From contig CAZVRT010000004.1 in NCBI GenBank assembly GCA_964630375.1, forward strand, positions 8,651 to 72,650: a stretch of 64,000 nt of DNA. Direction: 5' to 3'. The position numbers and the translations under genes were made by a program. Below, piece by piece: positions 1,984 through 64,000 of the stretch (the first letter of the stretch is position 1; each line of letters starts with the position of its first letter). The notes beneath the pieces are model-generated. The model worked only from the letters and a program-made list of their open reading frames with translations, had not been told where the DNA came from and did not search any database. The stretch is from an uncultured Candidatus Saccharibacteria bacterium. Its GTDB lineage: Bacteria; Patescibacteriota; Minisyncoccia; Phycocordibacterales; JAACPR01.

Positions 1984-1999
1984 TAATTTTCAGGAGTGA

Positions 2000-3148: not shown

Positions 3149-3257
3149 GTTTATCTAACTGCAATACTATCACATTTTTATGAAAAAGTCAAGTCAACAA
3201 TCAACAAAAAATGGCTTTGTTAAGCCATAAATTATCGTTTATTAAATACTTATTTTG

Positions 3258-3339
3258 TGCCGAGGAGAGGACTCGAACCTCCATGGGTCACCCCGCTTGC
3301 TCCTAAGGCAAGTGCGTCTACCAATTTCGCCACCTCGGC
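3258..3339 (-). tRNA. tRNA-Leu (anticodon TAG), long variable arm
   Basis: Reverse complement GCCGAGGTGGCGAAATTGGTAGACGCACTTGCCTTAGGAGCAAG...GGTTCGAGTCC...CCTCGGCA. Anticodon loop CTTAGGA. Confidence 0.85.
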
Positions 3340-3394
3340 ATACGGCAAATTCTATCAATAAAAAATAAAATTTACCAGCGAATTTCTCTCGCTT

Positions 3395-7247: not shown

Positions 7248-7267
7248 AATCAGTATTATGTCTATGT

Positions 7268-21274: not shown

Positions 21275-22102
21275 CTATTCTTTTCGCACCGCTTTATTCC
21301 AAAAATTAAACTTGTCATATTTTTCCGCAAATGGACCAAGTGTTTCTTTCCAATCAGAGACAGGAGTCATGATAGTGTTTTTGATTGTGTGCAAATCCGT
21401 AAAGCCGTGAAATAAGTCATCTTCCTTTGTCGTTTGCTCTATATTTTTAAAATCATGCTCAAAAGGTTCTTCTCCTAAAAATTTATAAATATCATCAATA
21501 ACTTTCTTAGGGTTTGTAGTTAATTCCTCAAAGAAAACAAAATGCATCTTTTTCCCGAAACCTCTTCTTAGAGCGTCTTTTATCGTGTTGTATGCGCTAC
21601 CAACAGGTTGATTGGCTTTCATAAACACCTCGCACCTACCTTCAACAGTTTGAAATTCAACCGGAAAAGCTTTTTCTTGACTGATTTGATGGCCTTTTTT
21701 AGTTTCTTTTCTGTATAGCTTTTCAAAACTAGCCAAAATATCTCTGATGTCTCTTACTGTTATCAATATTTTCACATCATTTTCCACCAAAGATTCTAAA
21801 AGTTCAAATTGTCCAGGCCAACCTCGACATTTATCAAAAATCACAGGCTTCTCTACGTCAGAATAAAAAGACTGAAGCATTGATTTTAATACTCTTAGTT
21901 TTGCAGGTTCATTTCTGACAGCTTTAAATTCTTGAATATTGTTCCAAGTGTTTCGTGTGTTTATTATCATTTGTAAAACACCTGAAGTAGCTGTCGCATG
22001 AAAGCGAGGATTTTGATTTAGAATATTGCAAAGCAAAGTAGAACCGCTTCGTGGTAATCCGGAGATAAAATAAAATTTTTTTGGATTTATATTATTTTTC
22101 AT
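21275..22102 (-). CDS. PAPS-dependent sulfotransferase family protein (Stf0/Sulfotransfer_3-like)
   Basis: 5'-PSB motif FISGLPRSGSTLL; 3'-PB-like ITVRDIRDILASFEKLY. The likely start is the internal Met (MKNNINP). Confidence 0.65.
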   Translation of the reverse strand: MKNNINPKKFYFISGLPRSGSTLLCNILNQNPRFHATATSGVLQMIINTRNTWNNIQEFKAVRNEPAKLRVLKSMLQSFYSDVEKPVIFDKCRGWPGQFELLESLVENDVKILITVRDIRDILASFEKLYRKETKKGHQISQEKAFPVEFQTVEGRCEVFMKANQPVGSAYNTIKDALRRGFGKKMHFVFFEELTTNPKKVIDDIYKFLGEEPFEHDFKNIEQTTKEDDLFHGFTDLHTIKNTIMTPVSDWKETLGPFAEKYDKFNFWNKAVRKE

Positions 22103-22185
22103 AAATAATTTTTTAATAATTTGTATTTGCAAACTGTGTATAAATACTGCGGGGGTGGGGGGTAACTCAATGTATAATACACTTC

Positions 22186-24748: not shown

Positions 24749-25657
24749 ATGGCAAATAGGCACCTTGCAAGATCGATTGTTCTTCAAACATTGTTTGAGT
24801 GGGACTTTAATGGAAACAATAATAACGAGGCAGAAAATATTCTGTTAAGAAACATTGAGGAATTCGCTCCAGGTGTGTCTGATATTCATTTTATGCAAAC
24901 TCTTTTGCGTGGTGTTATTGAAAAGAAACCAGAAATTGATTCTATTATTGAGAAGGCTGCGCCAGATTGGCCGCTAGAAAAAATAGCAACTGTTGATAGA
25001 AACATTTTAAGAATGGGTCTTTTTGAGCTTTTGTTTGTAGACCGATCAGAAGTTCCTTCAAAGGTGGCTATTAATGAAGCTATTGAATTGGGAAAAGCTT
25101 TTGGAGGTGATACTTCTGGAAAATTTATCAACGGAGTTTTGGGTGCTGTTTATAAAGAACTTGGTGAGCCTGGAAAAGAAGATGAATCTCCAAAAAAGAA
25201 AAAAGATATTCCTTTTGAAGAAATGCCTATTGAAGAAAAAGTTGGAGCTGTTGTTTTCGCAGAAGATAGTGGAGAAATTTATTTTGGTTTAGTTCACGAT
25301 GTTTTTGGTCACTGGACTCTTTCTAAAGGTGGTTTACAAGAGGGAGAAGATGATGAAGCTGGTTTGAAAAGAGTTATAAAAGAAGAAATGAATTTGGATT
25401 TGAAAGGTATAAATTCTTTGCTTGGAGAAACTGAATATGTTGCTAATCATCCGGAAAAAGGAAAACATCGAAAACAAGTTAGATATTATCTCGTAGAATC
25501 TGATTACGGAGATATTAAATTGCAAGAAGGAAAAAGCGGTTTAGATGCTGCACAGTGGTTTAAAGTAAAGGATGTTGCAGATTTAAATTTTTATAATGAT
25601 ATCGTGCCGTTAATAACGCAATCAATCACAACTTTGATTCAAAAAAACAACGCATAA
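24749..25657 (+). CDS. nusB: NusB (transcription antitermination factor) fused to a C-terminal NUDIX-hydrolase-like domain
   Basis: N-terminal ~140 aa ARSIVLQTLFEWDF...VAINEAIELGKAFGGDTSGKFINGVLGAV is NusB. The C-terminal GGLQEGEDDEAGLKRVIKEEMNL is a (degenerate) Nudix box. Confidence 0.7.
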   Translation: MANRHLARSIVLQTLFEWDFNGNNNNEAENILLRNIEEFAPGVSDIHFMQTLLRGVIEKKPEIDSIIEKAAPDWPLEKIATVDRNILRMGLFELLFVDRSEVPSKVAINEAIELGKAFGGDTSGKFINGVLGAVYKELGEPGKEDESPKKKKDIPFEEMPIEEKVGAVVFAEDSGEIYFGLVHDVFGHWTLSKGGLQEGEDDEAGLKRVIKEEMNLDLKGINSLLGETEYVANHPEKGKHRKQVRYYLVESDYGDIKLQEGKSGLDAAQWFKVKDVADLNFYNDIVPLITQSITTLIQKNNA

Positions 25658-26372: not shown

Positions 26373-28604
26373 ATGAAATTAAAGTCTTTAGAAATTTCGG
26401 GATTTAAGTCTTTTGCGAAAAAAAGTAAATTAGATTTTGATGCTCCTATTACTTCAATTGTTGGGCCAAATGGTTCAGGGAAATCAAACGTTGCTGAATC
26501 TTTTCGTTTTGTTTTAGGAGAACAATCTATTAAATCAATGAGAGGAAAAAAGGGAGAGGATTTGATTTTTAATGGGACAACAGCTCTTGGAAGACAAAAC
26601 AAAGCAAGTGTAAAAATAATTTTAGATAACTTAGATAGAGCTTTGGATATTGATTTTGATGAAGTGGTGATTGAGCGTGTAGTACACAGAGACGGGGTGA
26701 ATGATTATTTTATCAATGGATCTTCTGTTCGTTTGAAAGATATTTCAGAACTTCTTGCGAAAGCAAATATTGGTTCTACTGGACATCATATTATTTCTCA
26801 AGGTGAAGCTGACCGAATTTTAAATTCAACTCCTAAAGAAAGGCGAGCAATGCTTGAGGACGCACTTGGTTTGCGAGTTTTTCAATATAAAAAAGTTGAA
26901 AGCGAAAGGAGATTGCAAAAGACAGAAGAAAACGTCGCACAAGTTCAATCTTTGAGAAAAGAAATTGCTCCGCATATAAAATATTTGAAAAAACAAGTTG
27001 AGAAAATTCAACAAACGGAAGAATTGAAAGAAAAATTGCGAATTGCTTATAAAGATTATTTGGCAATAGAAAAAAAATATATTGATACTGCACAAAAAAA
27101 TATTTTAAATGCAAAAGCAGAACCAAAAAATCAGTTAGGGGAAATTGAAACACAGTTGGTTTCTTTGAAAGAAGAATTGAGTAAATCAAAACAAGGTGAT
27201 ACTCGAACAAGTGAATTGTCTGATTTGAATAATCAAATTTCAAATATCAGAAATGAAAAAAATAATTCTGTAAGAGAAGTTGGTCAAATTGAAGGAGAGC
27301 TGCGTTCTTTGGAAAGAATTGCTGAGAGAGAAAAGAAAGAAGAGCAATCCGTGAGCATTCCTTTGAGTGATGTTGAAAATTTGAAAATGGAAATCGAAAA
27401 ATTTTCACAAGATATGGAAAGTGGAGATGTTTCTGTTTTGAGAAATATTTTAATAAAAATTCGTGAGTCTTTGACTTTGTTTATTTCAGAAAGAAAAAAA
27501 GCTCCGCAAGAGTCTGATTTTGATATTTTGAAAGACGTTGAATCTTTGAAAGAAAAAATTGAAGAAGCTCAATTGAAAGTGAAAAAAATGGAAGAAAAAG
27601 AGCGAGCTTTGGAAAATATGATTTTCAATTTAAGAAAAGAAATTGAAGCTTCTCAAACTACAATGTTGGATGCTGAAAGAAAAATTTTTGAACTAGAAAC
27701 AAAAAAAGGACATTTGCAAAGCGAATTGAATCGTTTGAACATCGAAGAATCATCTTTAATTAGAATTGACGAAGATTTTAAAAGAGAAGTTTCTGAAGCG
27801 CTTGTTTTGGCCGGAAGAGAGGCTGTTGATTATGAGTCAGTTGAAGTTTCTGATGAAAAAGTAAAAAACCGTGATGAACAAAACCAAAGACGAAGAGACT
27901 TGGAAAAAATGAAAATTCGAATTGAAGAACTTGGCGGTGGAAACTCAAATGATGTTTTGAAAGAATATGAAGAAGTTACAGAACGAGATGAATTTTTGAT
28001 AAAAGAAATTGCAGATTTGGAAACTTCAGCAGAGTCTTTGAAACAATTAATTGTTGAACTGGAAACTGAAATCACAAAAAAATTCAAAGAAGGAGTTGAT
28101 TTAATAAATTCAGAATTTAATAAATTTTTTGGCTTGATGTTTGGAGGAGGAGAAGCTGCTTTGAAATTGGTAAAGCCAGAAATTCGCAGAAAGAAAACCG
28201 ATACAGATATCGATTTTGATGGAAACGGAATTCCGGACGATATTGACCAAGAAGAGGGAATTGATATTGATATTGCTTTGCCTCGAAAGAAAGTTCGCGG
28301 ACTGATGATGCTTTCTGGAGGAGAACGAGCTTTGACTTCTATCGCACTTATTTTTGCAATGTCTGCTGTAAATCCGCCGCCTTTTATTATTCTTGATGAA
28401 ACAGATGCAGCGCTCGATGAAGCAAACTCAAAAAAATATGCAGACATGATTGAAAGACTTTCAGATCGTTCTCAATTGATTTTGATTACTCATAATCGAG
28501 AAACAATGTCTCGAGCAAGTGTGCTTTATGGAGTAACAATGATGCAAGGGGTTTCAGAATTGCTTTCAATTAAATTTGAAGAAGGTGTGCAATATGCTAA
28601 ATAG
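26373..28604 (+). CDS. smc: SMC-family ABC ATPase (compact, 743 aa; no recognisable hinge)
   Basis: Walker A GPNGSGKSN; long coiled-coil; C-terminal LSGGERALTSIALIFAM and Walker B ILDETDAALD. Confidence 0.7.
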   Translation: MKLKSLEISGFKSFAKKSKLDFDAPITSIVGPNGSGKSNVAESFRFVLGEQSIKSMRGKKGEDLIFNGTTALGRQNKASVKIILDNLDRALDIDFDEVVIERVVHRDGVNDYFINGSSVRLKDISELLAKANIGSTGHHIISQGEADRILNSTPKERRAMLEDALGLRVFQYKKVESERRLQKTEENVAQVQSLRKEIAPHIKYLKKQVEKIQQTEELKEKLRIAYKDYLAIEKKYIDTAQKNILNAKAEPKNQLGEIETQLVSLKEELSKSKQGDTRTSELSDLNNQISNIRNEKNNSVREVGQIEGELRSLERIAEREKKEEQSVSIPLSDVENLKMEIEKFSQDMESGDVSVLRNILIKIRESLTLFISERKKAPQESDFDILKDVESLKEKIEEAQLKVKKMEEKERALENMIFNLRKEIEASQTTMLDAERKIFELETKKGHLQSELNRLNIEESSLIRIDEDFKREVSEALVLAGREAVDYESVEVSDEKVKNRDEQNQRRRDLEKMKIRIEELGGGNSNDVLKEYEEVTERDEFLIKEIADLETSAESLKQLIVELETEITKKFKEGVDLINSEFNKFFGLMFGGGEAALKLVKPEIRRKKTDTDIDFDGNGIPDDIDQEEGIDIDIALPRKKVRGLMMLSGGERALTSIALIFAMSAVNPPPFIILDETDAALDEANSKKYADMIERLSDRSQLILITHNRETMSRASVLYGVTMMQGVSELLSIKFEEGVQYAK

Positions 28605-43389: not shown

Positions 43390-45207
43390 ATGAAAAACAA
43401 AATCAAAAATAAAATCACCGCACTTATACTTTTACTTACCTTAACAATCCTTTCTTACTCACCTTTAATAATCAAACCTCAAACTGCAGAAGCAGCTGGG
43501 ACTTGGGTGTGGGAGGAGTTGACTGGGGCTGGACAAAGAAACTGGATGGGCATTACCTCATCAGATGATGGAATGAATCTGGCCGCTATTACTCAAAACG
43601 GATATATCTACACTTCGACAGATGGTGGTGATAATTGGGTTGAAAGGACTGGTGCTGGTTCAAGAGAGTGGATGGATATTGCTTCATCGGCTGATGGTTC
43701 TAAATTATTTGCTGTTCCACAATATGAACTGGTTATATGGATTTCAACTAACTTTGGTTTAACGTGGGACTCTGTGCTGCTTGATAATAATCCAGAGATA
43801 GAGTCTTTGGATCTTCAGTCTATCGCAGTTTCTGCTAATGGAGAAAAAATTGTAGTTATAAGTTCTGAGACTTATGGCGGAGGTTCGTATATTTCAAATA
43901 ACGCAGGTGAATCTTGGTCGGAAATAGAGGATTTTGATTACGATTATTTAGAACTTACTCCTTCAGTTTCTATGTCGTCAGACGGAATGAAAATAATAGC
44001 TGCTGCGCATCCTGATGGAGACTCTTCTAGTCATAGAGGGTATTTTATAACAACTAATGGTGGGGAGAGTTGGAATTATTCTGTGTCAAATGATCCGTAT
44101 CCGCACTATATACGAGCAAAATATTCAAAAGATGGTAATACGATATTGATGGCGGGACCAGAGGTTGGTTATGTTAGGGTGTCCGACAATAACGGAATCT
44201 CATGGAGAGATGTTGAAGGAGAAGTGTTTTGTGTGGAGGATGAGTGGGAGAATGAGACTTGTTATAATGATATAATTGGAGCTGATATTGCTTTATCATC
44301 AAATGCTCAAATACAAGTATTACTTTTGAACGAAGTCGGTCTTAGAGATGTACTAAATCCAGAACTGGATTTTTTAATTTCAACAGATGGAGGTCTGACT
44401 TTTTCAGCACATGAGACTGGATATCATTATCCTTATAATTCCAACATGTCTCAAAACATGATAACAATCTCTGCCCCCGGCACCACCATATACGCTGCAG
44501 AACCCTCAGGTCACATCTGGAAAGGAACATACATCCCCGAAACCTTCACCCTCTCCTTCAACACCCAAGGAGCATCTCCCATACCAGACATAACAGAAGA
44601 TGAAGGAACCTCTGTAACACTCCCACCCTCACCAACATACGAAGGATACACCTTCTTAAACTGGAACACACAAGCAGATGGTGAAGGAGACTCATACCAA
44701 CCAGGTGACTCATTCACACTAAACTCTGATACAACACTGTATGCTATATGGGAGGAAAACCCTATTGAAGAACAACCAGAAGAACAAACCCCCTCAGAAG
44801 AACCCTCACGTCGTTCTTCTTCACGTCGCTCAGTCCCTTCTAGCCTCCAAGCTAAAAACAACACCCTAAACTCTATTGTACTCCAATACAAAGACTCCCT
44901 AACAACACTACACACTCTAGGTATCATATCTCTCCCACAAAACATACTAGATATACTAAACATACAACCAACCAATACAACAAATACAACCTTCCTAAGA
45001 GACCTAACCCTAGGTGACACAGGTACAGATGTATCTACCTTGCAATCTATCCTAATATCTAAAGGATACTCTATACCAGCAGGACCAACAGGATACTTTG
45101 GTGAACAGACAAGACAAGCGGTGGCACAGTTCCAGAGAGACAACAACATTACACCTGCAGAGGGGTGGTTTGGGGTGGTGACTAGGGGGAAGATGAGGGG
45201 GTTTTAA
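43390..45207 (+). CDS. Secreted BNR-repeat (sialidase/Ycf48-like beta-propeller) protein with a Listeria-Bacteroides 'Flg_new' repeat domain and a C-terminal peptidoglycan-binding domain
   Basis: Signal peptide; BNR motifs STDGGDNW, TNGGESW, SDNNGISW, STDGGLTF; EGYTFLNWNTQADGEGDSYQPGDSFTLNSDTTLYAIWE; C-terminus TGTDVSTLQSILISKGYSIPAGPTGYFGEQTRQAVAQFQRDN. Confidence 0.6.
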   Translation: MKNKIKNKITALILLLTLTILSYSPLIIKPQTAEAAGTWVWEELTGAGQRNWMGITSSDDGMNLAAITQNGYIYTSTDGGDNWVERTGAGSREWMDIASSADGSKLFAVPQYELVIWISTNFGLTWDSVLLDNNPEIESLDLQSIAVSANGEKIVVISSETYGGGSYISNNAGESWSEIEDFDYDYLELTPSVSMSSDGMKIIAAAHPDGDSSSHRGYFITTNGGESWNYSVSNDPYPHYIRAKYSKDGNTILMAGPEVGYVRVSDNNGISWRDVEGEVFCVEDEWENETCYNDIIGADIALSSNAQIQVLLLNEVGLRDVLNPELDFLISTDGGLTFSAHETGYHYPYNSNMSQNMITISAPGTTIYAAEPSGHIWKGTYIPETFTLSFNTQGASPIPDITEDEGTSVTLPPSPTYEGYTFLNWNTQADGEGDSYQPGDSFTLNSDTTLYAIWEENPIEEQPEEQTPSEEPSRRSSSRRSVPSSLQAKNNTLNSIVLQYKDSLTTLHTLGIISLPQNILDILNIQPTNTTNTTFLRDLTLGDTGTDVSTLQSILISKGYSIPAGPTGYFGEQTRQAVAQFQRDNNITPAEGWFGVVTRGKMRGF

Positions 45208-45239: not shown

Positions 45240-46916
45240 ATGGTTAAAAGATTAATCTCATTATTTTCCAAAGAAATTTCAAACATTCACCAGGCAGCAT
45301 ATCTTATTGCTGCTTTTGCATTAATTTCCCAATTTTTAGGACTAATTCGAGATCGTCTATTAGCAGGAAAATTTGGTACAGGTATTGAACTTGATATTTA
45401 CTATTCTGCTTTTCGAATTCCAGATTTTATTTTCACAATGATAATTTCTCTGGTTTCTGCCGCTGTTCTTGTACCGTTTATTATCAAAGCGCTTGAGAAA
45501 GACGAAAATTATTTAAAGAAATTTTCAGATAGCATTTTCACAGGATTATTTTTTGTTTCTTTTATAATCGGAATAATAACTTTTTCTTTTGCGCCAAAAA
45601 TTTTAATAACAATTTTTCCAGAATATTTTAACTTGGGTTATGGAGAAACTTTAATTTTACTTACAAGAATTCTTTTATTCCAAACAATACTACTTTCTTT
45701 TTCTGGATTTTACATGAGTTACGTTCAAGTTTTTCAAAAGTTTTTGATTTATGCTTTGAGTCCGGTTTTGTACAACTTTGGAATTATTGTCGGAATTGTT
45801 TTCTTCTATGACAAAATTGGTGTTGCAGGGTTGGCTTGGGGAGTTGTTTTGGGAGCATTGCTTCATCTTATTGTTACGTTGCCGACAGTTTTTGCAAAAG
45901 GAATTATTCCAAAATTTGTTTGGAAACCAGATTGGAAAATTATCAAAGAAGTACTTTTACTTTCTTTACCAAGAACTGTTGCTTTGGCAGGAAATCAAAT
46001 CTCAATGTTGATTATGGTTACTTTAGCTGCTTTGATGAGCGCTGGTTCAGTTGCAATTTTCACATTTGCTTTTAACTTACAATCAATACCTCTTGCAATT
46101 ATTGGAGCGAGTTATTCGATGGCTGCTTTTCCAACATTGGCGAAACTTTTTGCAAAAGGAGAAACAAAAATTTTTACAGAATATGTTGTGAAAGCCGCGA
46201 GACACATTATTTTTTGGTCGATTCCGATTACGGTCTTGTTTATCGTTTTGCGGGCACAAGTTGTCAGAACTATTTTGGGAACAGGAAAATTTAGTTGGGA
46301 TGATACGAGACTTGTTGCAGCTTCTTTAGCATTGTTTGTTATCTCTGCGGTTGCTCAAAGTTTGATTCTGCTTTTCGTTCGAGGTTATTACTCAACAGGA
46401 GAAACTGTTAAGCCGTTGTTTTTCTCTTTAATTTCAATTGCGTTTACTGTCGCTTCAGTTTTTGGTTTGTTTTTCCTTTATGAAATTTCGCCGCAGTTTG
46501 TTATTTTTCTAGAAAATATGATGCGCGTTTCTAGTGGTCCAGGAAGTATGGTTTTGATTTTGCCAATTGCGTTTTCTTTGGGGCAAATATTAAATTTGAT
46601 TATGCTCTGGTCTTCTTTTGATAGAAAATTCTGTTGCTTCTCTGATATTTTGTGGCGATCAATTTTTCATACAACAGCCAGTTCGATTGTAATGGGATTT
46701 GTTACATATTATATGCTGAGAGTTTTCGATGATATTTTCAACATGTCGACAACTGCTGGAGTTTTTGCTCAAGGATTTTTCTCTGGAATTTTCGGAATCC
46801 TAGTTGGAATCTTGGTGCTGATAATTTTGGATAACCAAGAAATTAAAACAGTAGGAAAAACTCTTCATTCTCGATTCTGGAAAGCAAAAGTTGTGGTAGT
46901 GGAAGAAGAGGTTTAA
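45240..46916 (+). CDS. murJ: Lipid II flippase MurJ (MviN)
   Basis: ~14 TM segments; LIRDRLLAGKFGTGIELDIYYSAFRIPDF MurJ N-terminal signature. Confidence 0.85.
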   Translation: MVKRLISLFSKEISNIHQAAYLIAAFALISQFLGLIRDRLLAGKFGTGIELDIYYSAFRIPDFIFTMIISLVSAAVLVPFIIKALEKDENYLKKFSDSIFTGLFFVSFIIGIITFSFAPKILITIFPEYFNLGYGETLILLTRILLFQTILLSFSGFYMSYVQVFQKFLIYALSPVLYNFGIIVGIVFFYDKIGVAGLAWGVVLGALLHLIVTLPTVFAKGIIPKFVWKPDWKIIKEVLLLSLPRTVALAGNQISMLIMVTLAALMSAGSVAIFTFAFNLQSIPLAIIGASYSMAAFPTLAKLFAKGETKIFTEYVVKAARHIIFWSIPITVLFIVLRAQVVRTILGTGKFSWDDTRLVAASLALFVISAVAQSLILLFVRGYYSTGETVKPLFFSLISIAFTVASVFGLFFLYEISPQFVIFLENMMRVSSGPGSMVLILPIAFSLGQILNLIMLWSSFDRKFCCFSDILWRSIFHTTASSIVMGFVTYYMLRVFDDIFNMSTTAGVFAQGFFSGIFGILVGILVLIILDNQEIKTVGKTLHSRFWKAKVVVVEEEV

Positions 46917-55732: not shown

Positions 55733-56542
55733 ATGAAACCAAGACCCTATATCGGAATTACAGATTTCCCTACGTGGGAAACAACTCAAAGAATGATTGA
55801 TTGTTTCAAGAAAAATCAATCTGGAATACCTCACGCTTTGCACATCGGAATAATGTGCAGCTACAAAAGCTTGAATGGGCATGCAACTAAATACGACGAT
55901 GTTTGGCCTGAGTCAAAATATCTTTCAAACATTTTTCCAGTAACTGGTAGCGAGCCCGTGTTCAATTGTCTGCATTATGCCGACTATGGAACCACGCCGT
56001 ACAAAGAAACTGTAAAAACGATTGTAAAAGGATTGAATGCCTGCGGCGCTCAGTTGCACGGTCTTCAGCTGGACATGATCTGGCCCGACTTTGCAGCTAT
56101 TTGGTCAGCCTTGAGGTTGAGTTTTAACAATTCTCCGTTAAAAGTGATTCTGCAAATCAATTCTCGGGCTTTCGAAATGATGGACAACGATCCTAAAAAA
56201 GTCGTTGAAAAACTTCGCGAGTATCGAGATCTGGGACTTCTCAACTATGTTTTGCTGGATAAAAGCATGGGTAAAGGACAGCCTTTGGACGCACGGTTCA
56301 TGTTGCCATTTCTTCGGGAAATTCAGGAGCAGTTTCCGGATGTTGGGTTGGTTGTTGCTGGAGGACTTGGTCCTGATACTCTGGATTTGCTTTGTCCAAT
56401 TTTGGAGGAGTTTCCGGGTATAAGTATTGATGCGCAGGGAAGACTTCGCCCGAGCTTTGATTCCACGAAACCGATTGATTGGAATATGGCGGAAAGGTAT
56501 GTGAAAAATGCAACTGATCTTTTCCGAAAATATATTCGCTGA
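55733..56542 (+). CDS. TIM-barrel protein resembling phosphoribosylanthranilate isomerase (TrpF-like), divergent
   Basis: ..NACGAQLHGLQLD.. (compare LDAVQLHGDE) and ..LVVAGGLGPDTL...GISIDAQG.. (compare ILAGGLNPENV...GVDVSSGVE). Confidence 0.4.
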   Translation: MKPRPYIGITDFPTWETTQRMIDCFKKNQSGIPHALHIGIMCSYKSLNGHATKYDDVWPESKYLSNIFPVTGSEPVFNCLHYADYGTTPYKETVKTIVKGLNACGAQLHGLQLDMIWPDFAAIWSALRLSFNNSPLKVILQINSRAFEMMDNDPKKVVEKLREYRDLGLLNYVLLDKSMGKGQPLDARFMLPFLREIQEQFPDVGLVVAGGLGPDTLDLLCPILEEFPGISIDAQGRLRPSFDSTKPIDWNMAERYVKNATDLFRKYIR

Positions 56543-56579
56543 TTTTTGCGCTCTCTGAAATATGGGAGTTTTTATTTTA

Positions 56580-57332
56580 TTAAAATATCTGTCGTATTTT
56601 CAAAAGGACTCTTTTAGTAATGAAAAAAGCTGGTACTTTTCCGTAGTTATTTTTCCATGATTGTCGCAATTCTTGCCAACCTTTGATTCTTTGAGAAAAA
56701 CTTTTTGAGCTATGTCCCTTGTGTCTCATAATAGTAAAAACTTTTGGAATGTATTTCATTTTTGTATCGTCTGATTTTATTAAGCGAATCATAAAGTCGT
56801 AATCGCTGGCAATAGAAAAATTAGTCGAATAATATCCGTATTTATTGTGCAAATCTCTTTTATAAAAAAACGCTGGATGTGGAGGACACCAACCTCTAAA
56901 AATATTCTTTTTTGAAAATTGACCTGATTTCCATTTTCTTTTTATTTTGTTTGTGTCGTTACGATCAACAATAACTATGTCTCCATAACACACATCACAA
57001 TTTGTTTTTTCAAAAGTATCTACTACTTCTTGTATAAGATTTGGTGAGATATAAAAATCGTCGGAGTTAAGAACTGCCACTATATCTCCGGTTGCTATTT
57101 TGACACCATTATTTGTGGCGTCATAAATACCGAGGTCGGATTGAGAATGCAACTTAACCAGATTTGTGGTGGAATCTTGATATTTTTTAATCATTTGAAC
57201 CGTTTCGTCTGTCGACAGATTATCAATGAAAACATGTTCGATATTTCCGTATGTTTGTTTTTGGACACTTGCCAAAGTGTCGCCAAGAGTTTGAGAGCTA
57301 TTATATGTTGGTGTGATAATTGAAACTCTCAT
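56580..57332 (-). CDS. Family 2 glycosyltransferase (GT-A fold)
   Basis: MRVSIITPTYNSSQTLGDTLASVQKQTY; DxD-type motif LNSDDFY. Confidence 0.8.
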   Translation of the reverse strand: MRVSIITPTYNSSQTLGDTLASVQKQTYGNIEHVFIDNLSTDETVQMIKKYQDSTTNLVKLHSQSDLGIYDATNNGVKIATGDIVAVLNSDDFYISPNLIQEVVDTFEKTNCDVCYGDIVIVDRNDTNKIKRKWKSGQFSKKNIFRGWCPPHPAFFYKRDLHNKYGYYSTNFSIASDYDFMIRLIKSDDTKMKYIPKVFTIMRHKGHSSKSFSQRIKGWQELRQSWKNNYGKVPAFFITKRVLLKIRQIF

Positions 57333-58351
57333 GATTTTTTGGAATTCAGTAATTTATGAATTTTAAAATAAATCTTTTTCAGCGCAGACGACAGCATTTT
57401 ATTTTTCTTGATAATCTTCTTTATTTGAAATAGTAACTTGGATTTTTGATGATAAACTCCGAAGACTTTTTTGTCTATGTTTGGGTTGTATGAAATGGAA
57501 AGGCTATTATCGAGGATTCTATTTTCAGTCAAACTTCGCTTAATATTACCTAATTTATTCGACAAAACTGTGTGAGTTGCATCATGATGTCCAATTCCAA
57601 TATTTTCTATCAAATTATATTTGGGTTTAATTACTATACTTTCATGAAAAAAATGTGAAAAAACAAATTGAAAGTCCCAAGTATCAACCACACCAATTTC
57701 GCCGTTATTATAATACACATTATCAAAATCTCGTTCAAATTGATTGGACATACGAAACTCGCTTAGGTGTTCATAAAGTTTTTGTGATTCTTTATATTTT
57801 GGCCATTCTGTCATTTTAAAATCATAATGCTGCCAAGCTCTTTTCCAGGTTGCCCATCCCCACATCCAAAATAATTTTGAGAAATAATAATCTTCGGATA
57901 AATTCCGCAAATCTTTTATAGGTGGAGAGAAACCAGAAACACTCATAATTTGAGAATCATTTTTATATAGGTCGAGCATTGCTTCACAAAATTTAAAAAA
58001 ATTAGCGGAAGGCAAACAATCATCTTCTAAAATTATAGCTTGTTCGCACTGTGAAAAAACCCAATCTAGTCCGCTCGAAACTCTTTTGCCACATCCAAGA
58101 TTTATTTCTGAATAATTACGGTGCACTTCACACGGCCAATCAATTTTTTCCACAATTGCGCGAGTTTGTTTGCACAATTCGGCATCTTGAATTTTGTGTG
58201 GACGTGGGCCGTCGGCAATAATAAAAAGTATTTCCGGTCGTGCTCTTCTAATTTCCTCAAAAACTCGTTGAGTTAATTCCGGACGGTTGAATATTATAAA
58301 TACTATGGGAGTTTTCATTTGCAGTGTATATTTTACCAGAATTTCTGTCAC
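57329..58351 (-). CDS. GT-A-fold glycosyltransferase with GnT-I/GT13-like motifs
   Basis: PIVFIIFNRPELTQRVFEEI (compare GnT-I CNRP..YL..TL) and ILEDDCL (EDD). Overlaps the downstream GT2 gene by 4 nt. Confidence 0.5.
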   Translation of the reverse strand: MTEILVKYTLQMKTPIVFIIFNRPELTQRVFEEIRRARPEILFIIADGPRPHKIQDAELCKQTRAIVEKIDWPCEVHRNYSEINLGCGKRVSSGLDWVFSQCEQAIILEDDCLPSANFFKFCEAMLDLYKNDSQIMSVSGFSPPIKDLRNLSEDYYFSKLFWMWGWATWKRAWQHYDFKMTEWPKYKESQKLYEHLSEFRMSNQFERDFDNVYYNNGEIGVVDTWDFQFVFSHFFHESIVIKPKYNLIENIGIGHHDATHTVLSNKLGNIKRSLTENRILDNSLSISYNPNIDKKVFGVYHQKSKLLFQIKKIIKKNKMLSSALKKIYFKIHKLLNSKKS

Positions 58352-58401
58352 TTAGAGGTTTAGATTTAAATTAGCATTTTCATGGGTTATTAGAGAATGT
58401 G

Positions 58402-59085
58402 TTAGTAAGATCTCTCTCTCTCTCTCTCTCTCGTGCTTTGGCTCAATAGTTGAGTTTGTACAAACCTCAACAACTGATTTTTGTCTTCTACGGTTTTTGT
58501 CCAGTTGGCATGAAATATTTTCATACCTCGAGGTAGTCTAAAAGGTTTTTGATTCCAGACGCCGTTGCTAATTTTATTGAAAAAATGTCGGACACACGCA
58601 TATTTTTTACGCTTCAAAATTTTTACTTTGATTGGAAAATCTCGTAATACTGCATTAAGTGCGGCTTGATCTTCTGGTTCATGTTCCATATATTTCAGGG
58701 TCAAAGAAAGTAAATTTTCCAACTCTTCAGATCCTCTCATAATCATAAAACCACAACAGGCTTGAACCACGTCATTTTGCAGAGCTATAAAATTCTGACC
58801 CAAATCTTTCTTTGCTATCTCTGGTGAAAAATTATCCGGGTTAAACAAAACATCACAATCGCTATATAAATAAATTTCTCCTCTATGAGTTTTTGATATT
58901 TCTAGGAGAATCTCGATTTTTTGTTGCATAGTTTCTTTCCAGCCTGGTTGATAGTAAGAGCCGTCTTTGCAGAGTTGTGGTACATCTTTTTTTACAACAC
59001 AAAATCCGCTTTCTTTCGCCGAAGGTTCGAGATATTTTTCAAATAAGCCCTTATGACTTAATGTGCAGACGGTAAATACATTCAT
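58402..59085 (-). CDS. Hypothetical nucleotide-diphospho-sugar transferase-like protein (DxD: SDCDVLF)
   Basis: Weak GT-A/'Nucleotid_trans'-like pattern; C-terminus encoded by the GA repeat. Confidence 0.35.
   Translation of the reverse strand: MNVFTVCTLSHKGLFEKYLEPSAKESGFCVVKKDVPQLCKDGSYYQPGWKETMQQKIEILLEISKTHRGEIYLYSDCDVLFNPDNFSPEIAKKDLGQNFIALQNDVVQACCGFMIMRGSEELENLLSLTLKYMEHEPEDQAALNAVLRDFPIKVKILKRKKYACVRHFFNKISNGVWNQKPFRLPRGMKIFHANWTKTVEDKNQLLRFVQTQLLSQSTRERERERSY
58409..58432. repeat. (TC)11 dinucleotide microsatellite, in frame at the 3' end of the gene at 58402..59085 (encodes a C-terminal RERERER tail) and ~50 bp upstream of the start of the next minus-strand gene
   Basis: ga-tctctctctctctctctctctc, 22 nt of uninterrupted TC. 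Confidence 0.95.
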
Positions 59086-59110
59086 TGAGAATTATTATAT
59101 ACTAATTGCC

Positions 59111-59842
59111 ATGAAAGTTTGTGTTGTAACACTCCATAAATCTGCTTCCATGTTCTTGCATCGATATTTCCAAGCTTATGCCAATTCCAAAAATTTGCCT
59201 TATTTTTCAGCAAATTCTGAGCCAGCAAATGAAGATGGCTGGAAACATCTCATCAATGGAGATTATGTAGTTTGCCCAGTTCGTATAAAAGACAGCCTTG
59301 ATTTATTACCGTCAGATGCTCAGTACATAATTCACTTCCGTAACCCAATTGATATTTTGATATCGGAGTATTTTTCTTTTGGTTGGACTCATCCTGTTAT
59401 ATCAGAAAAGCAAAAAGTTCGTAGAGAAAGTATTCAAAGTCAGACTATTGACGAGTATTGTATTGCGCATGCTCAGTCTTTACATAAAAGATATGGTCTT
59501 CTGATTTCCTTATATCAATCATCTTCTCAAGTGATCCTTTCTGATTATTCTTTGATGAGGCAAAGTTTTAAAAAATGGAATAAATCTATACTTGAAAGTA
59601 TTGAGCAAGAAGATAGTCAGAAAATATCTGAATTTTTATATAGTCAATTTAAAGGAGATTTTAGGTTTTTTAGGAATTTGTTTAGAAATGTAAACTCACA
59701 TCGTCGAGACGGACGAGACAATCAAGCTCGTGTTTATCTTAAGCCAGAAACTGTTGGGGTTTTGGAAAGTGAGCTTCAGGATATTATTGGATTTTATAAT
59801 GACATGCATCAGAGATTGCAAAAAAAATATGCCAAAACCTGA
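59111..59842 (+). CDS. Sulfotransferase-like protein (Stf0/Sulfotransfer_3-like), tentative
   Basis: N-terminal VVTLHKSASMFL (P-loop-like 5'-PSB position) and FRNPIDILISEY (3'-PB-like). The start is taken at the internal Met (MKVCVV) to avoid overlapping the divergent gene. Confidence 0.4.
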   Translation: MKVCVVTLHKSASMFLHRYFQAYANSKNLPYFSANSEPANEDGWKHLINGDYVVCPVRIKDSLDLLPSDAQYIIHFRNPIDILISEYFSFGWTHPVISEKQKVRRESIQSQTIDEYCIAHAQSLHKRYGLLISLYQSSSQVILSDYSLMRQSFKKWNKSILESIEQEDSQKISEFLYSQFKGDFRFFRNLFRNVNSHRRDGRDNQARVYLKPETVGVLESELQDIIGFYNDMHQRLQKKYAKT

Positions 59843-60713
59843 TTTCTTTATAATCGGTGCGCCAAAGTGCGGAACAACTTCGCTCAGTAAATATTTAAGG
59901 TCGCACCCAAATGTTTGTATGTCTGCATTAAAAGAGCCAAATTATTTTGCATTCGATTTGCAGTTACCTGGACCAAATTCTCTTGAAGAGTATTTGGGTC
60001 TGTTTTCAAATTGTTCTGGCGATTCATTGTGGGGAGAAGCATCAACTCATTATTTGTGTTCTCAGGTAGCTGTGCCGGAAATTTTAAAACTTAATCCCAA
60101 TGCCAAGTTTATTGTTATGCTTCGTAATCCAGTTGAGATGGCGGAATCTTTATTTTTTGAGGCACGACACCACTTGGCTGAAAAAGAACGCAAATTTGAA
60201 AGAGCATGGAAAGAACGTGAAAGCAGGTCTCTTACTATAAGATACGATTATGTGTGTGATGTTGGAAATCAGTTGGAGAGGTTATACAACACTGTTTCTT
60301 CTAGGGACTTAGTACATGTTATTCATTTTGATAATTTTATAAAAAATACTGCTGTTGAATATCGCAAGGTTCTTAATTTTTTAAATTTGCCTGATGATGG
60401 TAAAATAGACTTCACTCAGTTCAATAAAAGAAAAGATATGAAAAGTCGTTTGGTCGGAGACATTTTAAGAGCTTTAGAGTCAAAGAGATTAAGGTATTAT
60501 TCTAAGAAGGTAAAAGATATTTTTGGCTTATCCCAGTGGCCGCTTCTGGGTTCTGTATGTAAGCGCATAAAAGTTTACAACCTGAAACGCACAGATGGTG
60601 TTACAACAATTCCAGATTATTTACAAATCGAATTATATGAACACTTTTTGCCGACAGTTAACAAAGTAAAGAATCTGACAAGCATAGATTTATATGGCAG
60701 AAAAAGAAATTAA
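59829..60713 (+). CDS. PAPS-dependent sulfotransferase (Sulfotransfer_1-like)
   Basis: 5'-PSB motif DFFIIGAPKCGTTSL; 3'-PB region VMLRNPVEMAESLF. 14-nt overlap with the upstream gene. Confidence 0.75.
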   Translation: MPKPDFFIIGAPKCGTTSLSKYLRSHPNVCMSALKEPNYFAFDLQLPGPNSLEEYLGLFSNCSGDSLWGEASTHYLCSQVAVPEILKLNPNAKFIVMLRNPVEMAESLFFEARHHLAEKERKFERAWKERESRSLTIRYDYVCDVGNQLERLYNTVSSRDLVHVIHFDNFIKNTAVEYRKVLNFLNLPDDGKIDFTQFNKRKDMKSRLVGDILRALESKRLRYYSKKVKDIFGLSQWPLLGSVCKRIKVYNLKRTDGVTTIPDYLQIELYEHFLPTVNKVKNLTSIDLYGRKRN

Positions 60714-61617
60714 AAAACCAAACTTTTTTATAATCGGCGCACCAAAATGTGGCACCACTTCTTTGAGTGAATATTTGCGTTTACATCCTGATATTTATTT
60801 TTCACAACCCAAAGAACCGATGTACTTTTCGTCGGATATACCAAATACCCGAGTTTATAGATATACATCATTGGATGACTATTTACAAAAATGTTTTGAC
60901 GGATCGTCAGGATATAAGTTTGTTGGTGAAGGATCAACCAGATATCTTACTTCAGAAGTTGCTGTTCCTGAGATTTTAAAGATGGACCCAAGCGCAAAGT
61001 TTATAGTTATGCTTCGCAATCCGGTCTATTTATGCCACTCACTTTATTATCAGTATCTGAAAGACGATAATGAGGATGCCGAAAGTTTTGAAAAAGCTTG
61101 GCGTCTTCAAGATGAAAGAAACAAAGGAAATGATTTACCAAAGAGAGTTGAATGTCCTGCTTTATTGCAATATAGACAAAGATGTATGCTCGGGGAGCAG
61201 TTAGAGAGATTGTTTACACAAGTGTCAAATCCTAAACAGGTACTTATTATATCATTTAATGATTTTATCTCTGATACGGAAGTCGTCTATAAAAAGGTGC
61301 TGAATTTTTTGGGTGCCGATTATGATGGACAGCAAGAATTTCCAATTCATAATGAATACGGCAAAATTAGGAGTAAATTCTTTGAAAGAGTTTTGTCTAT
61401 TCCTAAGCATTCTTTTTTACGACCAATTTCTAAAAAGCTAAAGAAGTTTTTGAATATTCAACACTGGGCGTTTTTTGTTTGGATGAATAAAATGAATTAC
61501 AGAAAAATAAAGAAGGAGCCGATGAGTAAAGAATTGCGTGAAGAACTAACCGAATATTTTCGTTCAGACGTAGAGAAAGTAAAACGTCTAACGGGAATAG
61601 ATTTATATGAAAATTAG
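60694..61617 (+). CDS. PAPS-dependent sulfotransferase (Sulfotransfer_1-like), paralog of the upstream gene
   Basis: NFFIIGAPKCGTTSLSEYL; VMLRNPVYLCHSLYY. 20-nt overlap with the upstream gene. Confidence 0.75.
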   Translation: MAEKEIKKPNFFIIGAPKCGTTSLSEYLRLHPDIYFSQPKEPMYFSSDIPNTRVYRYTSLDDYLQKCFDGSSGYKFVGEGSTRYLTSEVAVPEILKMDPSAKFIVMLRNPVYLCHSLYYQYLKDDNEDAESFEKAWRLQDERNKGNDLPKRVECPALLQYRQRCMLGEQLERLFTQVSNPKQVLIISFNDFISDTEVVYKKVLNFLGADYDGQQEFPIHNEYGKIRSKFFERVLSIPKHSFLRPISKKLKKFLNIQHWAFFVWMNKMNYRKIKKEPMSKELREELTEYFRSDVEKVKRLTGIDLYEN

Positions 61618-62515
61618 CGTCATAACAACATCTTTTAATCATGGTCAATTTTTGGAAGCGACATTACGTTCTGTGGGGGCGCAGACTTATCGGAATGTGG
61701 AACATGTTGTGATTGATGGAGGTTCTTCGGATAATACGATTGAGATTTTAGAAAAATATCAGTCGCAATATAATTTGAAATGGATTTCAGAGCTGGACAA
61801 TGGTCAGACTCATGCTTTGAACAAAGGGTTGGCGATGATTAGCGGAGACATTGTTGTGTGGCTAAATTCTGATGACGTTTTTCTTTATAAAGACACTCTT
61901 GAACAAGTTGCTCGAGTTTTTGAATCAGGAGAAACTGATGTTTTGATGGGTGATATGGCTTTTTTGGATAAAGAGGGAAGTATTATTCAGTTTTTCGGAT
62001 ATTCAAAGTTTTCATATCAAAAATTTTTGAGTGGTTTGCGAAGTGTTGGTCAGCCTTCTGTTTTTATTAAAAGCGATATTCTCAAGAAGAATAAATTTAG
62101 AGAAGATTTACATTACGCTTTTGATTTTGAATTTTGGTTGAGAATTTTGAGAGGTGATATAAAAATTAAATGCACACGTTTTGTTTTATCAGGATCAAGA
62201 ATGTATCCGGGAACTAAAAGTTCTGACGAAAGTAAATTGTCCGAAGAAAAGAATCAAATATTTCAAGAGTGTAATTTAAATCCACGACCTTTCTCAAGGC
62301 TCGACAGAAAAATTGACAATTTTATTTCACTGAAAGTTAGGGGATTGTGGCTGCTTATTAAGCACAGATATTTTTTACGCTCACCAATGACTTCGGATTT
62401 GGTTAAATATAAAAAATTTCCAATGGATATTATTTATCAGATTTTCCGAAAAATGCGCTCAAACTACGAGCAGTATTGGAGTAAATATTTTCCAACCAGT
62501 TTTTGGAGTGATTAG
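61607..62515 (+). CDS. Family 2 glycosyltransferase
   Basis: MKISVITTSFNHGQFLEATLRSVGAQTY; DxD LNSDDVF. 11-nt overlap with the upstream gene. Confidence 0.8.
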   Translation: MKISVITTSFNHGQFLEATLRSVGAQTYRNVEHVVIDGGSSDNTIEILEKYQSQYNLKWISELDNGQTHALNKGLAMISGDIVVWLNSDDVFLYKDTLEQVARVFESGETDVLMGDMAFLDKEGSIIQFFGYSKFSYQKFLSGLRSVGQPSVFIKSDILKKNKFREDLHYAFDFEFWLRILRGDIKIKCTRFVLSGSRMYPGTKSSDESKLSEEKNQIFQECNLNPRPFSRLDRKIDNFISLKVRGLWLLIKHRYFLRSPMTSDLVKYKKFPMDIIYQIFRKMRSNYEQYWSKYFPTSFWSD

Positions 62516-63163
62516 ATGATTTGTCTTCAAACTTATATCCAAACATTTTAATAGTATTTTTTGTAATTTAGCTATATGCATTTTAGATTCATAATCGTAG
62601 TAATATGAATAATGTTTATGCTTGCTTGTGTTTAAGTGTGGCAGACTTATTCTTTCTAAACCAATCACATCACAAATTGTGTCAAAATCTGGTTGTATGG
62701 TTTCAATTTTTCCAACAAAATCCAGAATTAGTTTCCCATTTTCGTCAAATAAGTAACAATCATATTTGTTATCAAATAAGTTTGGGTGAAATATACATTT
62801 TTTAAAATTTCCTAATTGGTCTACCTTTTGAGCTTTGTATGGGTCGTAAATTCGGACTTGAGGATTTTGCTTATAATAACTGTATTTAGATACAGCAATA
62901 TCCCAAGGATTTCGGACAAAGGTAAATTTGAAATAAGTATTCCATATTTCCGAGGAAACCATTTTCTTTTGTTCGATAATCGGTAGGTGGTGAGTCCATG
63001 ATCCGATATAATGTTTTGGGATGGAAAATAGTTCTGCCTCTTCGCAGGTAAGCTTCTGAGCGTGTTCAATTAATCCCTTTTTTAAAAACACATCCCGAAT
63101 GGATGTTCCCCCTGTTTTGGGGATGTGAATAAAGATAAATTTATGTTTATGTGATATCATCAT
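62459..63163 (-). CDS. Carbohydrate sulfotransferase-like protein (Sulfotransfer_2-like)
   Basis: FIFIHIPKTGGTS P-loop typical of the carbohydrate sulfotransferase family. Start taken at the internal MMISHKHKF. Confidence 0.5.
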   Translation of the reverse strand: MMISHKHKFIFIHIPKTGGTSIRDVFLKKGLIEHAQKLTCEEAELFSIPKHYIGSWTHHLPIIEQKKMVSSEIWNTYFKFTFVRNPWDIAVSKYSYYKQNPQVRIYDPYKAQKVDQLGNFKKCIFHPNLFDNKYDCYLFDENGKLILDFVGKIETIQPDFDTICDVIGLERISLPHLNTSKHKHYSYYYDYESKMHIAKLQKILLKCLDISLKTNHLITPKTGWKIFTPILLVV

Positions 63164-63164
63164 G

Positions 63165-63929
63165 TTAGTTTTCCAAAAAGCTCCATAAAACTTTTCCAAT
63201 TTCATTACCATTTTTTCTTTCTTTTTGTATGAAAGAAGAATAATTTTTGATAAGATTTAAATTATATTCAGATCGGGTATCGTTGAGGTGCAAATGGCAA
63301 GCTTGTATTTCCAAGCAAGGATTTAGGACTTTGATCCCAGCTTTCATAGCATGATGACTCAAAAAACTGTCACAGTGCCAAGTGCCAATTTTAAAATCAC
63401 AAGAGAAGTGGGTGTCAATGGGTGTTTGATATGCCCAAACATCTTGAGATGTACCCATGTTTATTCCTTGATGAAAAATTTGCAATGTCCCGTTTGGTAA
63501 TACATTCCAACGAGTTAAGGCTAAGAGTTTATCTTTCAAATCATATTTTACCAATACTTCAAGAGTTTGGTTAAAGTATATATCTCCATTGGCGATTATA
63601 ATTCTTTGTTTTGGAAATTTATTATTTGAAAATTCAAATAACTCTCTAAAAGTTGGTCGGTCTTTTATATATACAATCTCAATTCTAGGCTCACTTTCAA
63701 TAAATTCTTTTATTTGATTTTTAACCGAATCTTTACTGGTGTCATAAAATACCACAATCTTTTTTATCATTCGATGTTCAAGATTATTTTTTAGGCATTG
63801 TTTATATTCTTCAATCCGATCTGTTTGTGTTTCGTTGAATAAGCTGGTAATTAAAACAAACTTGTCTGATTCGGAAATATCAGTCGGCGAGTTTGTTTTT
63901 AGAATTTTGCGATATCTGTCGTGTACCAA
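63165..63929 (-). CDS. Hypothetical protein in the glycan-modification cluster
   Basis: Long ORF with no confident domain. Confidence 0.35.
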   Translation of the reverse strand: MVHDRYRKILKTNSPTDISESDKFVLITSLFNETQTDRIEEYKQCLKNNLEHRMIKKIVVFYDTSKDSVKNQIKEFIESEPRIEIVYIKDRPTFRELFEFSNNKFPKQRIIIANGDIYFNQTLEVLVKYDLKDKLLALTRWNVLPNGTLQIFHQGINMGTSQDVWAYQTPIDTHFSCDFKIGTWHCDSFLSHHAMKAGIKVLNPCLEIQACHLHLNDTRSEYNLNLIKNYSSFIQKERKNGNEIGKVLWSFLEN

Positions 63930-64000
63930 AAGCTGTGTTTCAAGTAAATTTTTATCAAGGATGGTAAATCGGTCCTCGATTATTTTGCATAGCTTCCGTA

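Follow-up and report, generated by a model that had tools for sequence, protein, structure and literature searches.

The 64-kb stretch of contig CAZVRT010000004.1 analyzed here (64,000 nucleotides of a 92,007-bp contig, hereafter the window) ends in nine back-to-back genes, from position 56580 to the window end, which encode four sulfotransferases of the type that uses 3'-phosphoadenosine 5'-phosphosulfate (PAPS) and five glycosyltransferases of the GT-A fold. Judged from sequence, the cluster is likely to be a chromosomal locus for surface-glycan biosynthesis in a Candidatus Paceibacterota bacterium, a member of the candidate phyla radiation (CPR), and its product is probably multiply O-sulfated. 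An earlier note on this DNA had proposed a candidate sulfated surface glycan system from four to five sulfotransferases interleaved with glycosyltransferases; Pfam matches, predicted folds, motifs and an adjoining ABC ATPase agree with that proposal, and every open reading frame (ORF) that the note listed was present where it had been placed.

In the proposed pathway, the five GT-A enzymes (two inverting members of glycosyltransferase family 2 (GT2), a GT13-like enzyme, a GT8/GT77-like enzyme predicted to be retaining, and a membrane-anchored orphan) would join sugars into an oligosaccharide or repeat unit on the cytoplasmic side of the membrane, with polyprenyl phosphate as the probable carrier. 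The four soluble, cytoplasmic sulfotransferases would move sulfate from PAPS to different hydroxyl positions or sugars. The finished anionic glycan would be exported by a TagH/Wzt-type ABC transporter in this genome and by a Wzx flippase in two related contigs, and may form a wall-linked polymer, a capsule-like layer or a glycoconjugate at the cell surface. We infer the lipid carrier, acceptor sugars, sulfation positions, PAPS source, final attachment and biological role; a part in host mimicry or adhesion is speculation.

The DNA covered was the window and about 720 further bases read from Logan contigs of 2.7-2.9 kb (SRR16797977). The genes are as follows.

56580..57332, minus strand: GT2a, a soluble GT2 enzyme (GT-A, inverting), WcaE/TuaG-like; last gene of the minus-strand operon
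57329..58351, minus strand: GT13/GnT-I-like GT-A enzyme; likely start ATG at 58318; EDD motif in AIILEDDCLPS
58402..59085, minus strand: Nucleotid_trans (PF03407)/GT8-GT77-like GT-A enzyme, predicted retaining; first gene of the minus-strand operon
59111..59842, plus strand: STc, a divergent SULT-like PAPS sulfotransferase (predicted); first gene of the plus-strand operon
59829..60713, plus strand: STa, a heparan-sulfate-type carbohydrate sulfotransferase (Sulfotransfer_1/3)
60694..61617, plus strand: STb, a paralog of STa (Sulfotransfer_1/3)
61607..62515, plus strand: GT2b, a family-2 glycosyltransferase; last gene of the plus-strand operon
62459..63211, minus strand: ST2, a Sulfotransfer_2-type sulfotransferase; start at 63211 or 63163; 250 amino acids as called on Logan contig L088
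63165..64000, minus strand, running off the window to about 64181: P0141, a membrane-anchored orphan GT-A enzyme (predicted) of 338 amino acids
21275..22132, minus strand: a separate fifth sulfotransferase outside the cluster, TPST/SULT-like (Sulfotransfer_1)

All nine ORFs of the cluster are intact within the window. The plus-strand genes overlap by 14, 20 and 11 nt, in line with the 11 to 20 nt given earlier, and the minus-strand pair overlaps by 4 nt at 57329-57332. The two operons diverge, with 25 nt (59086-59110) between the start codon of 58402-59085 (minus strand) and that of the gene beginning at 59111 (plus strand). With so short a gap, both promoters must lie at least partly within neighboring coding sequence. 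Scans of the locus for promoters and terminators were uninformative, the DNA being AT-rich. P0141 had been ended at 63929 with 254 amino acids; the gene instead runs off the window and encodes 338.

Sulfotransferases in and outside the cluster

Pfam matches were read against cut-offs of 22 bits for Sulfotransfer_1, 27 for Sulfotransfer_3, 22 for Sulfotransfer_2, 23.3 for GT2 and 25.4 for GNT-I. STa (Sulfotransfer_3, 2.4e-14, 54.6 bits; Sulfotransfer_1, 1.3e-11, 44.9 bits) and STb (Sulfotransfer_3, 2.6e-15, 57.7 bits; Sulfotransfer_1, 3.4e-14, 53.3 bits) each exceeded both relevant cut-offs. They are paralogs with 41% identity, as the earlier description of two Sulfotransfer_1-type paralogs with PKCGTTSL loops had it. 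STa carries the motifs PKCGTTSL, KEP and RNPVEMAES, and STb the PKCGTTSL loop and the 3'-phosphate motif RNPVYLCHS. In an alignment of 18 sequences of the STa/STb family, P9, G20, T21, T22, K40-E41-P42, R108 and P110 show no variation and K18 and S116 almost none; by likeness to 3-OST and NDST, E41 is the putative catalytic base. The family has 1913 homologs spread over many phyla, with relatives in at least 590 GTDB genome stretches that include Paceibacterota, Paceibacteria and Saccharibacteria metagenome-assembled genomes (MAGs). Its profile matched the bacterial PDB entry 3rnl best (8.7e-52), followed by NDST and 3-OST at about 1e-12. PAPS-dependent sulfuryl transfer is the predicted activity of STa and STb.

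STc is more divergent and has few close homologs. The window protein matched Sulfotransfer_1 at E 0.004 (17 bits, under the cut-off), and its homologs P0139 (22.7 bits) and P0140 (28.6 bits) exceeded the cut-off. Its motifs are HKSASMFL, the 5'-phosphosulfate loop, and RNPIDILIS, the 3'-phosphate motif; across the family, HK(S/T)(A/G)SMFL and R(N/D)PxDxL(I/V)SxY are invariant. The eleven best PDB matches of the family profile were all sulfotransferases (best 2.5e-4). The AlphaFold model (pLDDT 82, pTM 0.80) was searched against the PDB with Foldseek, and all 50 of the 50 listed matches were proteins of the PAP(S)-binding sulfotransferase fold, with TM-scores up to 0.61. On these grounds, STc is classed as a SULT-like sulfotransferase with cytosolic SULTs as its nearest structures. 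The Stf0-like label once given to 59111..59842 was dropped, since PF09037 gave no match at E ≤ 0.1 and both profile and fold point to cytosolic-SULT-like enzymes.

ST2 matched Sulfotransfer_2 (PF03567) at 2.6e-10 (41.3 bits, above the cut-off) and carries the motifs IPKTGGTS and RNPWDIAVS. The gene had been recognized as Sulfotransfer_2-like from its IPKTGGTS loop and placed at 62459..63163; its start may instead be 63211. Single-sequence PDB searches with STc, ST2 and the Nucleotid_trans-like gene (58402-59085) returned nothing useful.

The fifth sulfotransferase (21275-22132) lies far from the cluster. It matched Sulfotransfer_1 at 4.2e-18, carries the motif GLPRSGSTLL, and its PDB matches by phmmer were TPST1 (2.2e-5) and SULT1E1 (5.1e-5). 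The earlier note had placed this gene beside a surface-protein gene, and the neighbor does carry a PG_binding_1 domain; the sulfotransferase itself extends to 22132. The two genes are divergent, the neighbor (22186-23904, plus strand) being a surface protein with PG_binding_1 and a weak Ig-like match. A protein rather than a sugar acceptor is conceivable for this enzyme.

Likeness of STc, ST2 and the distant sulfotransferase to STa/STb or to one another is marginal at best and confined to short motif stretches (best E 0.002); between the distant enzyme and the other four, it is limited to a short N-terminal segment containing the PAPS loop (best E 0.002). When the STc and STa/STb families were compared profile to profile, the one match was weak (probability 27%) and lay at the 3'-phosphate motif; the two are separate lineages. 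The cluster sulfotransferases come from three unrelated lineages, namely STa/STb, STc and ST2. An N-terminal PAPS-binding loop is present in all five enzymes and the RNP...S 3'-phosphate motif in the four of the cluster. The P-loops are the PAPS loops of sulfotransferases and not those of unrelated P-loop NTPases, an outcome that the earlier note had named as one that would undo its claim. No 19-residue hydrophobic window was found in the four sulfotransferases or the four soluble glycosyltransferases of the cluster, and P0141 alone has one. As the sulfotransferases have no membrane segment, sulfation must be cytoplasmic.

Glycosyltransferases, putative export gene and conserved core

Both GT2 genes that had been called from the sequence (56580..57332 and 61607..62515) were borne out by Glycos_transf_2 (PF00535). 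GT2a matched at 6.5e-31 (108 bits, cut-off 23.3), has no membrane segment, and shows partial NCBIfam likeness to TuaG and WcaE, far under their cut-offs; GT2b matched at 1.6e-23 (83.9 bits, cut-off 23.3). The gene at 57329-58351 had been described as GnT-I-like. Its match to GNT-I (PF03071; 1.1e-4, 21.6 bits) falls under the cut-off of 25.4, yet its sole PDB matches are the GT13 enzymes POMGNT1 and GnT-I (weak, E 0.17-4), and the fused ortholog on the related contig L087 exceeds the GNT-I cut-off with 26.1 bits. The GT13-like assignment is provisional on these grounds, and the window protein by itself remains under the threshold.

The window protein of 58402-59085 had no direct Pfam match. Among its 720 representative homologs, PF03407 was matched by 38 of the 40 that were aligned (best 2.3e-19). 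The family profile matched GT8 and GT77 structures, namely the GT8 entry 5gvv (7e-4), Skp1 alpha-galactosyltransferase and glycogenin, and D76-x-D78 (the DxD motif) and H192-x-N194 are invariant in the family. The earlier label of a DxD transferase-like gene was thereby refined to a probable Nucleotid_trans/GT8-like assignment through homologs and profile. On L087 the Nucleotid_trans-like and GT13-like domains are fused in one 541-amino-acid protein (1721-3346, minus strand), and this Rosetta-stone arrangement suggests that the two separate window glycosyltransferases act together.

P0141 has an N-terminal membrane anchor, with a hydrophobic stretch over residues 13-68, and the part of it encoded at 63165-63929 gave no Pfam match. 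It has 165 homologs, some from Babeliales/Dependentiae, and none of the 120 listed carries a Pfam domain. Its AlphaFold model (pLDDT 87) gave listed Foldseek PDB matches that are GT-A enzymes (WrtF, ppGalNAc-T, K4CP and heparosan synthase) at about 1e-7. This model identifies P0141 as the predicted fifth GT-A glycosyltransferase of the cluster, of an orphan family that has no Pfam model. A P0141-like gene also stands beside an STc-like sulfotransferase gene in two marine metagenome contigs (8356-9060 on L112 and 7594-8163 on L137).

Past position 64000, the next gene was read from Logan contig L088 of the same run; it lies immediately upstream of P0141 and overlaps it by 4 nt. The C-terminal 181 residues of its product, an ABC ATPase, matched the NCBIfam models TagH (2.7e-28) and Wzt/RfbE (1.3e-27) best, and NodI-type ABC models matched less well. 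The locus thus extends past 64000 and adjoins what the sequence indicates to be a TagH/Wzt-type glycan-export ABC ATPase, for which a role in export is predicted.

Seven of the genes form a core (GT2a, GT13-like and Nucleotid_trans-like on one strand; STc, STa, STb and GT2b on the other) that recurs in two related contigs, L002 (JGI, 181 kb; 44-63% amino acid identity) and L087 (8.7 kb). Identities of the L002 orthologs are 48% for GT2a, 47-63% for the GT13-like protein and 47% for GT2b, and the STb orthologs in L002 and L087 are 57-62% identical. The short gene overlaps are the same in both contigs, including the 11-nt overlap of STb and GT2b. The STa orthologs from L002 and L087 form one clade and the STb orthologs another, so the duplication is older than these genomes. 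PAPS-binding and catalytic motifs are invariant across orthologs that are 40-60% identical, which points to purifying selection. A fourth contig holds orthologs of at least STc and STb.

After the core, both L002 and L087 carry Polysacc_synt (Wzx), and L002 additionally encodes a priming enzyme (Bac_transf), a further sulfotransferase and more GT2 enzymes. ST2 and P0141 are confined to the version in the window and are absent at L002 and L087. On L002 the GT13-like gene (6778-7747) and the STc gene (8401-9167) are each split in two ORFs, as frameshift pseudogenes or through sequencing errors. Other Paceibacterota contigs hold a single sulfotransferase of the STa/STb family in a glycan cluster of ABC type (L083) or Wzx/Wzy type (L085). 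A metagenome scan with the STc family returned 127 relatives; among the 80 best loci, which were inspected (identity ≤ 39%), none had the seven-gene module. The earlier note had called the sulfotransferase density highly atypical for a small AT-rich genome. Such density is not unique: 27 of 80 loci from other genomes have 2-3 sulfotransferase genes within 20 kb, and groups of this kind are also present in other phyla.

To the left of the cluster, a terminator-like hairpin (56550-56569) separates it from an ORF at 55733-56542 (plus strand, 269 amino acids). This ORF has a GC content of 0.43 and a third-position GC content (GC3) of 0.42, versus 0.36 and 0.25 for housekeeping genes. It has no Pfam or NCBIfam match, is absent from the syntenic loci, and resembles a TrpF-like TIM barrel, judged by eye only.

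Host chromosome, sulfate donor and alternative readings

The remainder of the window is that of a bacterial chromosome, with IF2, ClpB, ThrRS, DnaE, RNase HII, a NusB-NUDIX fusion, RNase III, SMC, RNase R, S16, TrmD, RpoB, RpoC, DnaG, RpoD, MurJ, LepA, LeuRS and TsaD, plus seven tRNAs. RpoB belongs to a cluster at 90% identity in which all named members are Candidatus Paceibacterota. GC content is uniform across the region at about 0.32-0.38. Cluster GC was 0.335 versus 0.360, and GC, GC3 and per-gene codon distances of the cluster are within the range of small housekeeping genes; for this reason the locus is taken as part of a genuine Paceibacterota chromosome and not a contaminant. A contaminant contig, the other outcome that the earlier note had named as undoing its claim, is thus not what was found.

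Two of the housekeeping genes are unusual in form. The 302-amino-acid ORF at 24749-25657 (plus strand) joins NusB (residues 7-136) to a NUDIX hydrolase (165-282). The SMC-type protein at 26373-28604 (plus strand) has 743 amino acids, with SMC_N over residues 3-727, and is much shorter than typical bacterial SMC proteins of about 1,180 amino acids. The window also encodes two large predicted surface proteins with a C-terminal PG_binding_1 domain (22186-23904 and 43390-45207, plus strand), the former with the weak Ig-like match and the latter with BNR/Sortilin and Listeria-Bacteroides repeats, as well as a sortase (11080-11784) and a type IV secretion system (T4SS)-type pilin (757-1122).

Several observations weigh against a sulfated surface glycan made by this locus. 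For pooled synonymous codon usage, the cluster scored 0.130, whereas the control gave 0.068 ± 0.014 and reached 0.122 at most. The core is flanked by different genes in each of the three genomes, suggesting a variable glycan island. No PAPS-synthesis gene (sat, cysD, cysN or cysC) or PAP-recycling gene was found in the window among ORFs of at least 100 amino acids. A priming phosphoglycosyltransferase, ABC permease, polymerase, ligase and oligosaccharyltransferase are likewise absent from the window. The window sequences of STc, the GT13-like protein and the Nucleotid_trans-like protein lie below Pfam cut-offs and were assigned through homologs and models. The part of the cluster within the window also has no Wzx, Wzy or PCP, and the MurJ encoded at 45240-46916 is the lipid II flippase. 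The codon shift and the flanks are consistent with a lower-expression or older acquired island, and the core may be a mobile or variable one. Contamination and recent transfer were set aside as explanations of the composition, as GC and per-gene codon distances are ordinary and pooled synonymous usage alone is mildly shifted.

The earlier note had observed that PAPS-synthesis genes are missing from the window, which the domain search of ORFs of at least 100 amino acids confirmed, and had raised supply of the sulfate donor by a host. Genes for sat, cysC and cysN have been reported in dozens of CPR and DPANN genomes (He et al., 2021), so endogenous PAPS is plausible here. Host supply is not required, but stays a possibility. 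A literature search on Parcubacteria and adenosine 5'-phosphosulfate (APS) kinase found nothing relevant.

The same enzymes could instead make a sulfated protein-linked glycan, in which a lipid-linked oligosaccharide would be sulfated, exported and transferred to an S-layer protein, a pilin or a sortase-anchored protein. Sulfated N-glycans are established on archaeal S-layer glycoproteins, genes for several surface proteins, a sortase and a pilin lie in the window, and a set of five different glycosyltransferases, with neither a polymerase nor a chain-length regulator in view, suits a defined oligosaccharide equally well. However, neither an oligosaccharyltransferase nor an O-glycosylation ligase is present in the window, L002 or L087, and TagH/Wzt-type ATPases typically serve polymer export. 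We consider this product unlikely, while granting it some weight.

A sulfated small glycoconjugate, such as a glycolipid or oligosaccharide signal like the rhizobial Nod factor or the mycobacterial sulfolipids, would leave no surface polymer at all. STa and the distant sulfotransferase are weakly like NoeE in NCBIfam, in the P-loop only; NodI-type ABC models match the ATPase fragment, below TagH/Wzt; and the earliest-characterized bacterial sulfotransferases use such molecules (PMC8205485). Yet genes for an acyltransferase, a polyketide synthase or a chitin-synthase-type enzyme are lacking, STc does not resemble Stf0, the ATPase matches exporters of glycan polymers best, and the relatives have Wzx and Bac_transf, hallmarks of polyprenyl-linked glycan pathways. 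Together these leave the small glycoconjugate a slim chance.

Some or all of the sulfotransferases could also be non-functional relics of an acquired island, in a genome unable to make PAPS and with an unsulfated glycan. The missing PAPS genes, the mildly atypical codon usage and the fragmented GT13-like and STc genes of L002 (decay or sequencing error) would fit this. It is made very improbable by the nine intact window ORFs, motifs that do not vary among orthologs of 40-60% identity, operon overlaps conserved in L002 and L087, and the reports of sat and cysC in dozens of CPR/DPANN genomes (He et al., 2021). That the cluster is a contaminant or chimeric piece foreign to a CPR genome, to which a pooled codon usage just beyond the control distribution and the spread of the sulfotransferase family over many phyla might lend color, is next to negligible, given its contiguity with 56 kb of Paceibacterota housekeeping genes, GC (0.335 vs 0.360) and per-gene codon distances in the small-housekeeping range, independent Logan contigs of the same run that reproduce junctions inside the cluster, and same-family sulfotransferases in other Paceibacterota MAGs.

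A sulfated surface glycan made at this locus would bear on organisms that are ultra-small and mostly episymbiotic, and whose surface chemistry is almost unknown. What is notable is how many and how varied the sulfotransferases are for a reduced genome: four in one pair of glycan operons and a fifth elsewhere suggest that sulfate esters matter for the surface, possibly for host contact. The system would also supply a purpose for the sat and cysC genes of CPR/DPANN genomes, interpreted to date as part of sulfate reduction, and compact soluble enzymes of three lineages could help to make sulfated oligosaccharides. A bolder version holds that a dense sulfated glycopolymer would be the main anionic surface polymer of a monoderm-type CPR episymbiont and would mediate attachment to host cells, as a phosphate-free counterpart of teichoic or teichuronic acid or a glycosaminoglycan-like coat, with PAPS from a minimal dedicated sat/cysC pathway or from the host; this we regard as decidedly unlikely.

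Comparison with known systems

Sulfated-glycan systems are known in bacteria, and none was found reported for CPR; full-text literature searches on sulfotransferases in Patescibacteria or the candidate phyla radiation turned up nothing relevant. Bacterial clusters for sulfated polysaccharides are known from cyanobacteria, marine Vibrio, Cobetia, Pontiella and Actinoplanes. For the capsule loci of the marine Vibrio sp. KMM 8419 and Cobetia marina, a sulfated polysaccharide structure is reported together with a sulfotransferase-containing cluster (PMC11641403, PMC11766843); these hosts are Gram-negative Proteobacteria, unlike the CPR host.

The rhizobial NodH, NoeE and LpsS and the mycobacterial Stf0 likewise carry out PAPS-dependent sulfation of carbohydrate-containing envelope or signal molecules. 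Their gene contexts differ from that in the window, the Stf0 model misses STc, and NoeE matches STa and the distant sulfotransferase at 17-18 bits against a cut-off of 500, with nothing significant beyond the P-loop.

Among structures, the STa/STb profile matches 3RNL over its full length, a protein to which, to our knowledge, no function has been assigned, and NDST and 3-OST over the PAPS-binding N-terminal half. The heparan-sulfate enzymes share with STa/STb the PKxGTT loop, the putative base in KE(P) and RNPxxxxxS. With the animal NDST and 3-OST, the likeness is confined to roughly the first 120 residues, with no relation in the acceptor-binding half.

As in the TagGH and Wzm-Wzt pathways, a TagH/Wzt-type ATPase adjoins the biosynthetic genes of the window locus, and all modifying enzymes of the locus are predicted to be cytoplasmic, as is expected for ABC-dependent glycans that are completed before export. 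L002 and L087 use a Wzx flippase instead, unlike the ABC ATPase of this locus (C-terminal 181 residues read).

Of the characterized systems, the one most like the window cluster is that for synechan (xss) in Synechocystis sp. PCC 6803, where 2 sulfotransferases and 8 glycosyltransferases are encoded alongside Wzx, Wzy and PCP (Maeda et al., 2021, PMC8205485). Cyanobacterial sulfotransferases of PF00685, PF03567 and PF13469 are mostly found in polysaccharide clusters of the Wzx/Wzy or ABC type (PMC8205485). Sulfation was chemically shown for synechan, whereas for the window system it is predicted from genes. The xss cluster lies on a megaplasmid of a diderm phototroph and includes Wzx, Wzy, PCP and dedicated regulators; the window cluster has no Wzy, PCP or regulator in view, has the TagH/Wzt-type ABC ATPase adjacent to it, and belongs to a CPR host with a small genome. 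In both, several GT-A glycosyltransferases are interspersed with sulfotransferases of the PAPS type from different subfamilies (PF00685, PF13469 and PF03567), and a lipid carrier at the cytoplasmic face is the proposed site of assembly and modification ahead of export. The ratio of sulfotransferases to glycosyltransferases is 2:8 in xss and 4:5 in the ~7.6 kb of the window cluster.

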